DNA of 64,000 nt from assembly GCA_964016885.1 (NCBI GenBank), contig OZ024740.1, forward strand, positions 118,172,001 to 118,236,000, written 5' to 3'. Under the pieces are notes generated by a model that had not been told where the DNA came from, did no database searches, and was given only the letters and a program-made list of their open reading frames with translations. The stretch's first letter is position 1, and each line of letters starts with the position of its first letter. The stretch is from Eledone cirrhosa. Taxonomy: Eukaryota. Of the stretch, positions 262 to 61,778 are shown piece after piece. Made by a program: the position numbers and the translations under genes.

Positions 262-878
262 AGTATATTAACAAATGGAAACTATATTTATAAAACCATA
301 TTTATTTCATTATACATATTTCAAGGGCCACCAAAGTAAACTATGGTGCGCTTTCATCAGATATTATTATTGTTTATCCATGTTACGGTATTCATCCACC
401 CTGTATTTATTTCTTCGCCTCTTCTCTCAAAATTACGCTATTCTCTCTCACTTAAACATACTCAGGTTTTTTTTCTCTTTCTTTCTTTCGTTTTGTCTCA
501 TTTTTTCTCTTTCTTTTTTTTTTCTCTATTCCAACGGCTTAATTTAAATATACTGTTATTTAAACCTTTCCGACTCCTAATTTGCATAATAAACCAACAA
601 TAAATCTAATAACTCCACTCCAGAATGGTTGCATTTTTTAAGGGTATGTCAATATTTATTTATAAAACTAACCTATATTATATTTTATCTGATGAAAGCG
701 CACCATAGTTTACCTCGGTGGCCCTTGAAATATGTATAATGAAATAAATATGGTTTTATAAATATAGTTTCCATTTGTTAATATATTGTATATTTACTCC
801 AATAATTTGTTGAGTGCTTTATCAGTTATAAAAATATTTTGCTTGTTGTATCCCAACAAATTAAGTATAACCTCTACA
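262..878. mobile_element. PLE pseudo-LTR fold-back insertion, family A
   Basis: 262-362 is the reverse complement of about 687-790. The right arm carries an extra ~90-nt tail to 878. Flanked by (TA)n. The same sequence recurs at 12.0-12.5 kb, 44.5-44.9 kb and 61.7 kb. Confidence 0.8.
681..746 (+). ncRNA. Minimal type I hammerhead ribozyme (family A)
   Basis: Stem I tattttat/atgaaata; CTGATGA at 689; stem II aag-cgcacc...ggtggc-ctt; GAAA; near-palindromic stem III tatgta; TA cleavage site. Confidence 0.8.
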
Positions 879-1029
879 CACAAATATATATATATATATA
901 TATATATATATATATATATATAAACGGAAAAAATGAAACGAAATTTCATTCCTCACTCTTAGTACGGCTGTTACTTAAATATAAGTATGTATACGTACAT
1001 AAATATATGTATACATACGTACAGTATTA

Positions 1030-1215
1030 GGGCGGTGAATTGGCAGTATCGGTAGAGGGTCAGACATGCTTTCTAGCATAGTTACGTCCCTTTACGATCT
1101 GAGTTCAAATCCCGCCGAGGTTAACTTTGCCTTTCATCCTTACGAGGTCGATAAAATAAAGTACCAGTAATATACTGGGAAATTGCTGGCCTTGTGCCAA
1201 AAAGTAGAAACAATT
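1030..1215 (+). mobile_element. tRNA-derived SINE (family S1)
   Basis: A box tggcagtatcgg, B box gagttcaaatcc, central domain ctttgcctttcatccttacg(g/a)ggtcgataaaataaagtaccag and 3' gtagaaacaatta. More than 10 copies in the window. Confidence 0.85.
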
Positions 1216-1461
1216 ATGTATATATGTATACATACATGCACACACATATATATATATATATGTACGTATGGATACATACTTATATTTAAGTAACAGCGTA
1301 CTAATAGTGAAGAATGAAATTTCGTTTCTTTTTTTCCGTTTATCGTTTTCGGTGCACCCGGCCGATTAACTCACTCGATATGCAAATTAGGCTGCTCAGC
1401 CGTTAGTATGCATAAGGAAAGTATATACTTTTAGGCGTTCAATCATCTGGCAGGAAGGTAT

Positions 1462-1504
1462 ACATTGCTGACGATAGCTAATAAGCTTGAAACTAGTACA
1501 GCGT
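1462..1504 (+). ncRNA. Minimal hammerhead ribozyme (family D)
   Basis: CTGACGA-tagct-aata-agctt-GAAA-CTAG(palindrome)-TA. Stem I is partly decayed in this copy. Confidence 0.65.
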
Positions 1505-58406: not shown

Positions 58407-59697
58407 AAAAATAACAGATTAAAGTTTAAGCAAAGAATCGTTGCTTTCACCCTTAACGGGATCTTCTGAAACTATCAAAGTCAATCTGTAAACGCAGAAG
58501 TGGATATTTCAAAAAGCGTTGCAACCGGAGGAAGACAGGAAGACGATACTTTGGTTCGTGGTAACGTTCCCTGGCAAAGAACGGGAAAAAACGAATATAA
58601 TACCTAATTAACAGGAGCGATGAAAAACAATTACACGCAAAGACAGAACCACGTTTATGGTATAAAAGAAGTCGTAGACTAATGTTCTCTTAGGTGGTTC
58701 ATAGAGACGTTCTCTGGCAATGAACGAAAAAAACGAAGATAATACGTCATATGTGGTGCGTAGAGAACAATTGCACGCAAAGACAAAACCACGTAAATGG
58801 TATAGCTGAAGTCGTAGACTAAAATTCTAACTAGGAAACCGAATGAATCTCCGCTTCAGATGTAGGGTGTGTGTGTATGTGTACTTCATGTTTTGGTTGA
58901 CATACGTCTCCGAAGATTTGTGTATTTACATGTAGGTATGTGTGTGCGCTTGTTATATACGTATTTATTTATTTATATACGTTTATTTAATTATTTATTT
59001 ATTTGTATACACGCACACACACACATATTTATATGTGCGTGGTTTTGTATACCTATGGCTAGTGTTTTCGCGTATGCTTGTGTATGTACGTATTTGGATG
59101 CGTGTATGTATTTATTTAATTTCTATTACCCCTGTATTGTATTTTATTTACTTTATTCTTAACTCTGAAGCGGAGATTCACTCGGTTTCCTAGTTAGAAT
59201 TTTAGTCTACGACTTCAGCTATACAATTTACGTGGTTTTGTCTTTGCGTGCAATTGTTATCCACGCTCCACATATGATGTATTATCTTCGTTTTTTCGTT
59301 CATTGCCAGTGAACGTCTCTATGAACCACCTAAGACACATTAGTCTACGACTTCTTTCATACCATAAACGTGGTTCTGTCTTTGCGTGTAATTGTTTTTC
59401 ACCGCTCCTATTAATGACGTATTATATTAGTTTTTTCCCGTTCTTTGCCAGGGAACGTTACCACGAACCAACGTATCGTCTTCCTGTCTTCCTCCGGTTG
59501 CAACGTTTTTTGAAATATCCACTTCTGCGTTTACAGATTGACTTTGTTAGTTTCAGAAGATCCCGTTAAGGGTGAAAGCAGCGATTCTTTGCTTAAACTT
59601 TAATCTGTTATTTTAATAAATATTTGCTCTACGGTTCTTATATATTTGATATATATTTATCCTTATCGAGCCCTCTTTGGATTTTAGTCTTCAAATT
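58407..59697. mobile_element. pLTR fold-back, family C
   Basis: 58407-58860 is the slightly diverged reverse complement of 59164-59614. Internal ~138-bp tandem duplication. Right arm has an extra ~80-nt tail. Confidence 0.85.
59549..59599 (+). ncRNA. Hammerhead-like motif with variant core CAGAAGA (family C)
   Basis: agttt-CAGAAGA-tccc-gttaa-gggt-GAA-AGCA..TGCT-T-aaact. The mirror arm has the same core. Confidence 0.5.
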
Positions 59698-59835
59698 TAT
59701 TATTATTACTATATATATATATATATATATATATATATAGTAATAATAAGAAATATATATATATATTTATTTATTTATATATATAAATGAAGTATTTCCG
59801 TCAGAAAGGTACAGGAAAAAAGAGTGCTCTTCGGT

Positions 59836-61380
59836 AAAGACTTAATCAATACCTTTGCTAACCTAAACCTTAAAATTACTATAGATACGAATCTTACTAA
59901 TACTAACTTTCTTGATATCAATCTTGATGTACTTACCGCCTCTTTTAAACCTTATCATAAACCTAATGAACATTTAAGATATATATACAAAGAGTCATGC
60001 CATCCCTCTATAGTCTTTAAAAATCTTATTCCTAATATTAGCCGTAGGATTTCTACCTTATCTTCGTCTATAGACATTTTTAACAAATTACCCCTTATTA
60101 TAATTGGTGGTGGATTGGCAGTATCGGTGGAGGGTCGGACGTCATGCTTTCCAGCATAGTTACGTCCCTTTACGATCTGAGTTCAAATCCCGCCGAGGTT
60201 GACTTTGCCTTTCATCCTTACGGGGTAGATAAAATAAAGTACCAGTAATGCACTGGGTAATTGCTGGCCTTGTGCCTAAAGTAGAAACAATTATAATAAG
60301 GCCCTCAATAACAGCGGCTTCACCTTTCTAACACTAAACACAGTAACAAGAAAAGAAAATTATTTGGTTTACACCAGCCCTTCTCTCTAACTGTTAAAAC
60401 TAATGTAGGATGAAAATTCCTCGACCTCCTTCACAAACATTTTCCCCTTAATCATAGATATAATAAGATATTCAATAGAAATGTGGTTAAAATCAGTTAC
60501 TCTTGCTGCCCATCAAAGAAAACTAAAATTACCAACTCTAATAGTACTAAAGTAAATCCAGGATGCAGTTGCAGGAAGCCGTAAGAATACCCATTACAGG
60601 GTAAATGTAATACCAAATCTATTGTGTATGAGGCCAAATTGACACCAATGATTAATAACCAGCCAGCCAGGAGTAAACGATATGTTGGCATGACTCCGGA
60701 CAGATTTAAAACCAGGTATTATGCACATGTCGCTTCTTTCAAACACCCTGAAAAAAGAACAGCAACGTTGCTGGCAAATAAAGTGTGGGAGTTTAAAGAC
60801 ATAAACATTCTATACACTATTTATTGGTCTATTTTAGACCATTCAAGAGAATACCAAAGCGGCACAAAGAAATGTTCTTTGTGTACTACGGAAAAATTTA
60901 TAATTCTCCAAAACTTGAAAACCCATTGTCCCAACTCTAAGACCGAGATCTTTAGATGTTGTCCGCAGCTGAAATCGCATCTACTTTTTAACTGGATTAA
61001 CATACCAACGATTACTCAACACCTTGAGCTTCTTTATTATCACGCCTTCCGCTCACTACCAATTTCATTACCTTATGAACACATACTTCTACCAATATAT
61101 ACTTTTTCTCCCTCATCTCTTTCTATATATCATTTGACTTATATCCCGCCCCCTACTATCTACCATACCTTTAATACGTACACACCCACCACCTTTATCC
61201 TTTACCAAGATCACCTTTTAACTATATAGACTTATCCAGAACTCATCACAAATACTTACTCTCTACTACTACTTTTACACCCCTTTTCTCCCTTATCTGT
61301 TCTTAATAATTGTTTTTATTATTTTATTTCAGTTTTACTCCCCTTTGTCCTTACTTACCTACTAGGTTTTTAAGTGTACT
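59836..61380 (+). pseudogene. 5'-truncated PLE (RT thumb, linker, GIY-YIG) interrupted by a SINE
   Basis: TNFLDINLD..FKPYHKPNE; CSCRKP*EYPLQGKC; IVYEAK..RYVGMT..FKTRYYAH; CSLCTTEK; then a pyrimidine-rich 3' region. Confidence 0.85.
60105..60292 (+). mobile_element. S1 SINE inserted in the PLE
   Basis: TSD ttataat. Removing the SINE restores PYYN|KALNNSGF. Confidence 0.9.
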
Positions 61381-61698
61381 CACATATATACGTGTTTTTA
61401 TAGTTATATGTATGTGTGTGTGACTGTGTGTGTGTGTGTGTGTATATATATATATGTATACAAATATATATATATATATATATATATATATATATATATA
61501 TATATATATATATATATATATATATATATATATATATATTTGTTTATATGTATTTGTATATATGCATACATATATATATATATATATATATATATATATA
61601 TATATATATATATATATATATATATATATATACATGCATACATATATACAAATACATATAAACAAATATATACATCATATATATATATATATTTATAT

Positions 61699-61778
61699 GT
61701 AGAAGTTCTATTTAAATTGTTGGGATACAACAAGCAAATATTTTTATAACTGATATAAAGCACGCAACAAATTATTTA
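61699..61778 (-). repeat. Inverted family-A pLTR tail at the 5' junction of the PLE
   Basis: tgtagaagttctatttaaattgttgggatacaacaagcaaat.. is the reverse complement of about 800-878. Confidence 0.8.

Follow-up and report, generated by a model that had tools for sequence, protein, structure and literature searches.

Short and long ends are paired in head-to-head insertions

We found that head-to-head insertions, of which the genome of Eledone cirrhosa has thousands, pair one short with one long outer end, and that this rule holds genome-wide; solo arms and about 1-2% like pairs also exist. The pairing is probably the product of Hydra-clade Penelope-like elements (PLEs) and hammerhead retrozymes in which both strands of a cut (TA)n target serve the element protein as primers for reverse transcription of one RNA, a mechanism that we infer from genomic scars. 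Hereafter, S denotes the family-specific short outer end and L the family-specific long outer end.

The window is a stretch of 64,000 nt (assembly GCA_964016885.1, contig OZ024740.1, positions 118,172,001-118,236,000 of the forward strand). Every named insertion in it consisted of head-to-head arms with outer ends at one S and one L, and the tails were about 34-97 nt long (Table 1). A sequence-only reading of this DNA had described some ten insertions with divergent arms and one long and one short end, and all of them were re-found in that form. Its coordinates mostly stood, but the L end of the second family C copy lies near 59710 and not at 59697, and that of the family E insertion was corrected from 22060 to near 22051, with the S end at 24888 unchanged. 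As it had anticipated, the family A PLE starting at 61699 reaches the A short site beyond the window, at 65612, with (TA)n directly after it. A family D solo arm is an exception missing from that reading.

Table 1. Insertions and associated features in the window, with their outer ends.
Feature	Position	Strand	Outer ends	Remarks
Family A head-to-head insertion	261..878		S left, L right	hammerhead cores at 360 (-) and 689 (+); tail hairpin about 796-815
Family D insertion, non-coding hammerhead unit of about 430 bp	922..1717		L left, S right	hammerhead core at 1468; separate SINE-like repeat (about 190 bp) at 1025-1217 within it
Family A insertion	12016..12498		L left, S right	
Family D solo arm	12564..12999	(-)	L end	inverted partner absent
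Family E insertion	22051..24888		L left, S right	tail hairpin about 22100-22123 (-); Hydra-type endonuclease remnant at 22792-23113
Family B short palindrome	26460..26652		L left, S right	both arms begin near predicted transcription start
Family C insertion	38180..38385 (approx.)		degenerate L left, S right	left end outside (TA)n
Family A insertion	44498..44918		L left, S right	
Family B full Hydra-clade PLE	47341..51033	(-)	3' end at S (47341)	5' pLTR 50804-51033; RT-EN frame broken, pieces 49663-50502 and 48586-49524
Family B tail hairpin	50774..50797	(-)		between S (50804) and L (50724)
Family B predicted promoter	50863..50892	(-)		TATA-like box (ref 142) to initiator A (ref 171)
Tail-only L arm of family B PLE insertion	51031..51108	(+)	L	whole insertion 47341-51108
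311-bp retrozyme array, head-to-head	51143..54171		S left, L right	junction at 53361; near-identical units across arms
Family B short palindrome	54188..54383 (approx.)		L left, S right	
3.9-kb palindrome, no long ORF	54410..58391		S left, L right	97-nt tail; tail hairpin about 58303-58324
Family C insertion (3' UTR/pLTR of Hydra-type PLE)	58407..59710		S left, L right	tail hairpin about 59626-59671; predicted start A at 59549
Tail-only L arm of family A PLE insertion	61699..61776	(-)	L	
Family A 5'-truncated Hydra-clade PLE	61777..64000, onward past window	(+)	S at window-equivalent 65612	frame 61780-63645

Identity of the elements

Judged by their sequences, families A, B, C and E are Hydra-type PLE families. 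In particular, the PLE frames carry a reverse transcriptase (RT) together with a GIY-YIG-type C-terminal endonuclease in one frame, a CxCx5C linker is present, CCHH is absent and a CxxC lies beside a conserved E, as defined for the Hydra clade. DKG was changed to DKT in families A and B, and the PLEs here show insertion into (TA)n, pLTRs and partial tandems, which are also Hydra-clade features. The RWK-type N-terminal motif reads RWR in family B, family A is truncated at its N-terminus, and families C and E have ORFs upstream of their ends. RVT_1 and GIY-YIG clusters were among the Atlas neighbours at 0.94-0.96; a Pfam scan of four frames returned no matches. Among the seven families listed earlier as unrelated, A, B, C and E are thus distinct at the DNA level only, since all four are of Hydra type, with proteins 37-43% identical.

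The 311-bp unit and family D are tandem and non-coding, with longest stop-free frames of 59 and 67 aa, and the 311-bp unit has 15,099 unit matches in the genome. Both carry a type I hammerhead, which passed a strict scan in the 311-bp unit and was recognized by eye in family D. A hammerhead had been claimed for every family; the strict scan recovered the full motif only in family A, family B (as a U3-A8 variant) and the 311-bp unit, while family C has a variant core and family E and the 3.9-kb palindrome only partial motifs. To a putative circular RNA of the retrozyme, the identical units across both arms speak only indirectly. A MITE or DNA transposon was rejected as an identity, because the ends are asymmetric and the centres variable, in contrast to symmetric TIRs and a shared centre.

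The pairing rule across the genome

In one family B subfamily, a matched genome-wide count of exact matches with 70-120-nt gaps gave 1,464 short/continuing, 7 short/short and 14 continuing/continuing pairs. Upon inspection, 46 of 47 continuing arms reached L, and the like-pair calls proved to be true S-S in 5/7 and true L-L in 3/14 cases. A pooled junction scan yielded 18 LS pairs for family A (4 other) and 33 for family C (9 other), with no LL or SS pair in either; its family B like pairs include preselected ones and were not used as rates, and its two "311-bp LL" rows are tandem-boundary effects rather than like pairs. Among the first 15 arrays of the 311-bp unit listed, 11 were S-L, 3 were solo and none was like-paired, and all 6 resolved elements among the first 30 family D matches listed were S-L. 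Additionally, a family-blind scan outside family B found a one-sided tail of 20-120 nt in 48 of 76 TA-abutting inverted repeats, with 25 running further and 3 symmetric. Reversed-pattern controls gave no matches in any genome search, which excludes chance.

The expectation that long/short pairing would be near-obligate was therefore borne out in every family tested (A, B, C, D and the 311-bp unit), and the non-coding hammerhead repeats obey it too. The absence of L-L and S-S pairs, in contrast, was upheld for the named window insertions but not genome-wide. One L-L pair and 7 solo arms occurred among 30 L-anchored family B loci, and S-S elements numbered 2 among the first 100 B and 1 among the first 100 A S ends listed. 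Solo arms are common, which indicates that one primer is able to finish alone. Exact matches in this 3-Gb genome numbered 8,400 for B short ends and 21,516 for B long ends. A 200-kb stretch (C5) taken for an unbiased insertion scan was a satellite array and yielded no insertions, and 8 loci of metagenome relatives offered no usable insertion ends.

A tail hairpin between the short and long sites

The sequence-only reading had proposed tabulating both ends against the hammerhead cleavage site. S and L proved to lie at no fixed distance from it across families (family B, about +19/+99; family A, +52/+140; 311-bp unit, +130/+165), and a fixed-distance rule was rejected. RNA 5' ends at the hammerhead cut were likewise rejected, because arms cross the cut site. 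We found a bulged hairpin between S and L in 18 of 30 representative tails, the same 30 on which the motif was defined (against an average of 2.3 and at most 8 in shuffles, and 1 on the reverse strand), and its closing pair was complementary in 16/17. The hairpin was absent in the other 12 tails, family D among them. Tail folding was better than in shuffles for family E only (z -3.8; others -0.6 to -1.4), and Rfam at the gathering threshold gave no matches. From these sequence comparisons, the S and L sites appear better explained by the tail hairpin than by hammerhead distance.

Inner ends, cap-like G and the number of primers

The arms did not overlap in 16/33 family C pairs, 7/18 family A pairs and both long window PLEs (A and B), whereas most B pairs and about half of the A and C pairs overlapped. 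Among 105 family B elements, the S arm reached further inward in 41, equally far in 16 and less far in 48. Tail-only L arms were many, and 6/33 in family C stopped at S. Both arm types of family B pile up at an initiator A, a position predicted to be the promoter and transcription start of this family. The base 5' of this start was T or C in 22/22 read-through copies, while among the first 100 of 124 junctions it was G 96 times and A 4 times (hand count); the extra G lay on the S arm in 11/30 and on the tail-bearing arm in 19/30. In family C, 2,258 arms begin at an initiator-like A, and the preceding base among the first 100 listed was G in 52, A in 25 and C in 23 (hand count). Two family C junctions had a G on both arms one base apart. 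Some of the family C Gs may derive from the partner arm.

An untemplated G on either arm is as would be expected from a reverse-transcribed cap. Together with the non-overlapping arms and the symmetric distribution of inner ends, it favours two separately primed cDNAs, in support of the two-ended priming suggested earlier.

The arms appear to share one template. Arrays with full units on both sides had arms of the same haplotype in 9/9 cases, across 6 haplotypes, and at each of five subfamily columns the arms of family B disagreed in only 1-3 of 105 pairs, about 47 of which had been preselected for the common subfamily. Rare family B variants occurred in one arm only 129 times and in both arms 4 times, so later conversion was slight. 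This concordance bears on the strongest alternative, in which two-ended priming takes place on two RNAs held by a protein dimer and the S/L asymmetry stems from first versus second nick; we regard it as unlikely. Such an arrangement would suit the many cases in which both arms reach the predicted cap over the same sequence, where one RNA would need strand displacement, and the anole protein is predicted to dimerize (PMC11167929). The concordance could also arise if the transcripts came from a single active source locus. The many tail-only L arms, including those stopping at S, nevertheless argue against it, as do the shared haplotypes and near-complete subfamily concordance. The exceptions, one B-D chimera and one mixed-subfamily B pair, agree with it, and indicate that two RNAs or later deletions sometimes contribute.

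Less probable still is a single priming at L, followed by fold-back of the cDNA (or self-priming of an antisense RNA), so that the second arm is a DNA copy and the endonuclease resolves at S. This is close to suggestions in PMC3846280 and PMC8557442, and it accounts for the arm identity and the correlated inner ends; the B junction, moreover, lies in an imperfect palindrome. However, extra one-sided deletions would be needed for each of the non-overlapping pairs, for the S arms longer than L (41/105 in B) and for a G on the S arm or on both arms. We consider it very improbable that asymmetric palindromes spread ready-made, as MITE-like elements or transcribed hairpins, with one founding event counted thousands of times: the modal junction length does recur in family B, but junctions differ copy by copy in position, overlap and insertions, and the rule spans several subfamilies, many families and arm lengths from <100 bp to kilobases. 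An assembly or chimeric-read artefact is extremely improbable: some arms are 99-100% identical, but most differ by 3-15%, with fixed family-specific ends and a one-sided tail, and the TA-joined long-site ends of the 311-bp unit recur in independent contigs.

Proposed mechanism

Priming from both target strands on one RNA, in effect a programmed twin priming, would proceed as follows. The protein, probably a dimer, would bind the bulged tail hairpin, and its endonuclease would nick both strands of (TA)n. Of the two 3'-OH ends, one would start synthesis at S, which lies 5-10 nt upstream of the hairpin; the second would start downstream of the hairpin, at L. UA pairing over 2-5 nt would assist both. 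One S and one L arm would lie on opposite sides because both cut strands likely prime on the same RNA simultaneously. Both cDNAs would be minus-strand; the L cDNA would halt in the tail or continue by displacement, and both could run to the capped 5' end, gaining a C, or else make several rounds of a circular retrozyme monomer. Microhomology or templated-insertion end-joining would then link the free 3' ends of the two cDNAs, with gaps filled by the host and the element's own plus-strand synthesis not needed. Short palindromes would arise when priming used the S and L sites closest to the 5' end of the RNA.

More tentatively, a dimer may clamp the conserved hairpin with one RT on each side and one cut strand for each, and no element-driven plus-strand synthesis. 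Retrozymes might hijack it via the hairpin, a single circular monomer being copied by both RTs into head-to-head arrays, and the RT may, as a single nested case suggests, lengthen the (TA)n flanks, building later targets.

Comparison with known systems

In L1 twin priming, as Ostertag and Kazazian reportedly described in 2001, both target strands prime on one RNA to give an inversion with small breakpoint indels; this is said to be a side reaction with a varying position of second priming and arms that do not overlap, in which an untemplated G marks the copied cap. The insertions here are similar in their inversion and in the G as a probable mark of a copied cap, but they use two fixed sites, with arms that frequently overlap, in what looks like the main route (compare PMC4859970).

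The Hydra clade of C-terminal EN+ PLEs (Craig et al. 2021) has an optional tail of 30-40 bp, ascribed to endonuclease resolution (PMC8557442, accessible text). In contrast, the tail here is about 34-110 nt, accompanies a short end in about 99% of the family B elements that are head-to-head, and is tied to a hairpin. For the Anolis Poseidon PLE in vitro (Frangieh et al. 2024), the available text of PMC11167929 describes two internal RT start sites that bound the tail, cutting and extension of both strands, dispensable hammerhead cleavage and a predicted dimer. That text assumes ordinary second-strand synthesis, reports no within-insertion coupling of sites and found no target homology. The two start sites bounding the tail are alike, but those here occur coupled and terminate in TA that matches the target. 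Metazoan non-LTR retrozymes consist of non-coding units in tandem that each contain a type I hammerhead; PLEs are proposed to mobilize them, possibly via circular RNA (bioRxiv 10.64898/2026.07.22.740005; PMC4209133). The arrays here are set apart from those descriptions, as far as their accessible text goes, by head-to-head arrangement, S/L ends and one haplotype across arms; the words "tail" and "head-to-head" were not found in the accessible text of the preprint.

Earlier publications already cover inverted PLE copies, the tail on one side, the two RT start sites and the in vitro extension of both strands. In our literature search, no paper put forward obligate S/L pairing or twin priming for PLEs; the subscription works Arkhipova 2006, Evgen'ev and Arkhipova 2005 and Pyatkov 2004, which may hold related ideas, lay outside its scope. 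The origin of inverted one-tailed PLE insertions is named as an open question in PMC8557442 and PMC11167929, and the S/L rule, the cap signature on both arms, one template and a candidate recognition hairpin make it directly testable with the existing in vitro system. Such priming would also give a mechanism for the return of retrozyme RNA to the genome and a source for tens of thousands of palindromes in the (TA)n tracts of this 3-Gb genome.

Target sites

Candidate target-site duplications, weak as evidence, occurred in 12 of 219 cases against a control rate of 2.2% from a control that was not length-matched, and 10 of the 12 were 12-15 nt long. We saw no difference in length between the (TA)n flanking S (median 27 nt) and that flanking L (28 nt; n=139, p=0.46), and no empty site came to light in contigs compared with one young array. 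The independent contigs that repeat the TA-joined long-site ends of the 311-bp unit carry them as loose ends.

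Architecture and ends of the insertions

Self-comparison and direct reading of the window, which spans positions 118172001-118236000 of contig C1 in a 3.0-Gb genome, revealed that all insertions named in the sequence-only reading consist of two head-to-head arms with (TA)n flanks, one short end (S) and one long end (L), the stretch between S and L forming the tail. Alignments placed the ends of families A and B at fixed positions. As that reading predicted, the family A Penelope-like element (PLE) that has its inverted, tail-only arm beginning at 61699 reached the A short site past the window, at 65612. 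End coordinates given in that reading were revised in two places, the C long end to approximately 59710 and the E long end to approximately 22051; on the left of the first C copy, (TA)n is no longer present. A strict scan recovered the full hammerhead motif in three families, namely A, B and the 311-bp unit, and in no other.

Features of the window
Feature	Positions	Remark
Row of five insertions	47319-59785	B PLE, 311-bp array, B palindrome, 3.9-kb palindrome, C
Family B PLE	47341-51108
311-bp array	51143-54171
3.9-kb palindrome	54410-58391
Family B hammerheads	47360-47443 (-), 50823-50906 (-)	U3-A8 variant
Solo D arm	12564-12999	single arm
Decayed Hydra-type RT-EN fragment	59839-61229	further fragment, carrying a SINE-like insertion
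SINE-like repeat	1025-1217, 3085-3299, 11270-11657, 35673-35867, 37638-37835, 45385-45953, 47190-47322, 60102-60297	~190 bp, abundant, often ends beside (TA)n
Inverted repeats without (TA)n on both sides	5292-5662, 9182-9407, 43324-46691	by the checks made, not members of the S/L set

The PLE frames of the window elements contain DKT, RWR and CxCx5C and lack CCHH, features listed for the Hydra clade in PMC8557442; Hydra-type frames were also located upstream of the C and E ends. In both A and B, it is the coding strand that faces outward. Family D and the 311-bp unit, which are tandem hammerhead repeats without coding capacity, are retrozymes, and the 3.9-kb palindrome showed no frame longer than 140 aa. 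The elements belong to known classes, and the integration rule is a new variant. We also observed a metagenome contig (L372:1-2482) that contains a Hydra-like frame and whose two ends are identical over 55 nt, which make it circular or a collapsed tandem.

Pairing of short and long ends

Three patterns with identical left and right anchors and an identical 70-120-nt gap were counted genome-wide in one B subfamily. This matched count gave 7 S/S pairs, 1,464 pairs in which one arm stops at S and the other continues into the tail, and 14 pairs with both arms continuing, against approximately 1:2:1 expected under random pairing. Upon inspection, L was reached in 46 of 47 mixed pairs, five of the S/S matches were true S-S, and the both-continuing matches comprised three true L-L pairs, three that read through L and eight that stop within approximately 45 nt of S. 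Like pairs, none of which had been seen in the window, exist genome-wide but are rare.

Of the short ends of B on C1, the contig holding the window, the first 30 comprised 22 partnered by L, two that made up one S-S element, and six that were solo, odd or unclassified. The first 30 B long ends were divided into 16 S-L, one L-L, one with another end, seven solo and five unclassified, two of the latter being assigned to S-L later. Among the first 30 of 2,365 family A short ends, 18 were paired with L and none with S; one S-S pair was present in the first 100. Family C showed 33 S-L pairs, no like pairs and nine with one end off-site; all six assignable elements in the first 30 D matches were S-L; and the first 15 311-bp arrays were S-L (11), disrupted (1) or single-armed (3). 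A family-blind scan outside B, part of whose repeats lie within loci picked by the A and D searches, found 76 inverted repeats adjoining (TA)n in 45 clusters, with a 20-120-nt tail (48), extending further (25) or symmetric (3). The proposal of near-obligate long/short pairing therefore holds where both arms exist, since nearly every such pair is mixed, but arms without a partner are frequent. Arms at two loci (L102 and L174) stop at a third, cryptic kind of site that also ends in TA (~42 nt past S; near reference position 168), which suggests minor start sites.

Evidence for a proposed pair of separate cDNAs

In the proposed mechanism, which we consider probable, both strands of the cut (TA)n target would prime cDNA synthesis at two fixed sites of the RNA, and the two cDNAs would join centrally. 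Self-priming is offered as the origin of head-to-head palindromes in PMC3846280. A tail-only L arm with nothing in common with the S arm was found in 16 of 33 C pairs, 7 of 18 A pairs and both long window PLEs; since these arms do not overlap, DNA copying of one arm could not have produced the other in those pairs. In 105 parsed B elements, three of them mis-parsed compound rows, the inward reach of the S arm was greater in 41, equal in 16 and smaller in 48.

The inner ends of both B arm types accumulate at reference position 167-177, where A171, the predicted transcription start, belongs to an initiator-like word and follows a TATA-like box by 29 nt. The base preceding A171 was T or C in 22 of 22 read-through B copies, and at one junction class it was G in 96 and A in 4 (first 100 of 124, hand count). 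In 30 cases, among which two loci look duplicated, this extra G was carried 11 times by the S arm and 19 times by the arm with the tail. In family C, 2,258 arms begin at an initiator-like A with a non-genomic preceding base (G 52, A 25, C 23 in the first 100, hand count; window G is 17%). Two C junctions carried G on both arms, one base apart, and part of the C-family Gs could derive from the partner arm. In L1 and SVA, an untemplated G is accepted as marking a cap that was copied (PMC4859970). We infer that both arms were RNA-templated, each able to reach the capped end. The junctions between arms showed 1-7-nt overlaps and short, locally templated insertions, which are typical of polymerase-theta end-joining. 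The TATA-like box and predicted start are located in the stem II loop of the B hammerhead, so a transcript initiated there would begin with only one half of a ribozyme, a complete one following in the tandem copy after it.

One RNA or two

All nine 311-bp arrays with full units on both sides had one haplotype across all units and both arms; together they span six haplotypes, some private, as would be expected if both primers had copied a single, likely circular, monomer. In B, where approximately 47 of the 105 pairs were preselected for subfamily, the arms were discordant in 1-3 pairs at each of five subfamily columns, and rare variants occurred on one arm 129 times and on both arms four times. 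One mixed pair, one B-D chimera and the like pairs run counter to a strict one-RNA rule. In the head-to-head chimera (L044/L045:70-421), three D units run to the D long site and directly abut a B short arm. At another locus (L360), 311-bp retrozyme units and a family-A-like segment share one orientation and meet at the tail hairpin of the latter, possibly by a template switch.

Determinants of the end sites

The hammerhead cut was rejected as the determinant of S and L because its distances vary by family and arms cross the cut site; such crossing agrees with uncut RNA as template (PMC11167929). A stem, RCUC...GAGY with a small 3' bulge, begins a few bases past S in 18 of 30 family representatives, as scored with a motif defined after viewing the same tails, compared with a mean of 2.3 and a maximum of 8 in 300 shuffles and 1 on the reverse strand. 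Its closing pair was complementary in 16 of 17. The stem recurs when tails of A, B, C, E and the palindrome are folded to minimum energy, significantly for E only, and family D is without the motif. The tail hairpin is a candidate binding site.

Comparison with known systems

An inverted partner, an often one-ended tail and (TA)n targets are already described in PMC8557442. PMC11167929 reports two RT start sites bounding the tail, with both strands cut and extended, and predicts a dimer. Our literature search did not find obligate S/L pairing, a cap signature on both arms, a common template, the hairpin in the tail or retrozyme arrays arranged head-to-head. The integration rule most resembles a programmed form of L1 twin priming.

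Target sites and (TA)n flanks

An interrupted direct repeat was present on both sides in 12 of 219 elements, 10 of them 12-15 nt long, a weak signal against a control rate of 2.2%; (TA)n conceals duplications. Flanking (TA)n may lengthen during insertion or later. In one nested case, L178, where a B element sits within a D unit, other D copies have 1-7 nt of TA at this site, and the two sides of the insertion now measure 103 and 70 nt. The five insertions in a row are separated mostly by (TA)n alone, and the row is a serial insertion, each into the flanks of another. On another contig of this genome, 200 kb of 18-bp tandem satellite (G000:C5:60000001-60200000) contained no (TA)n runs.
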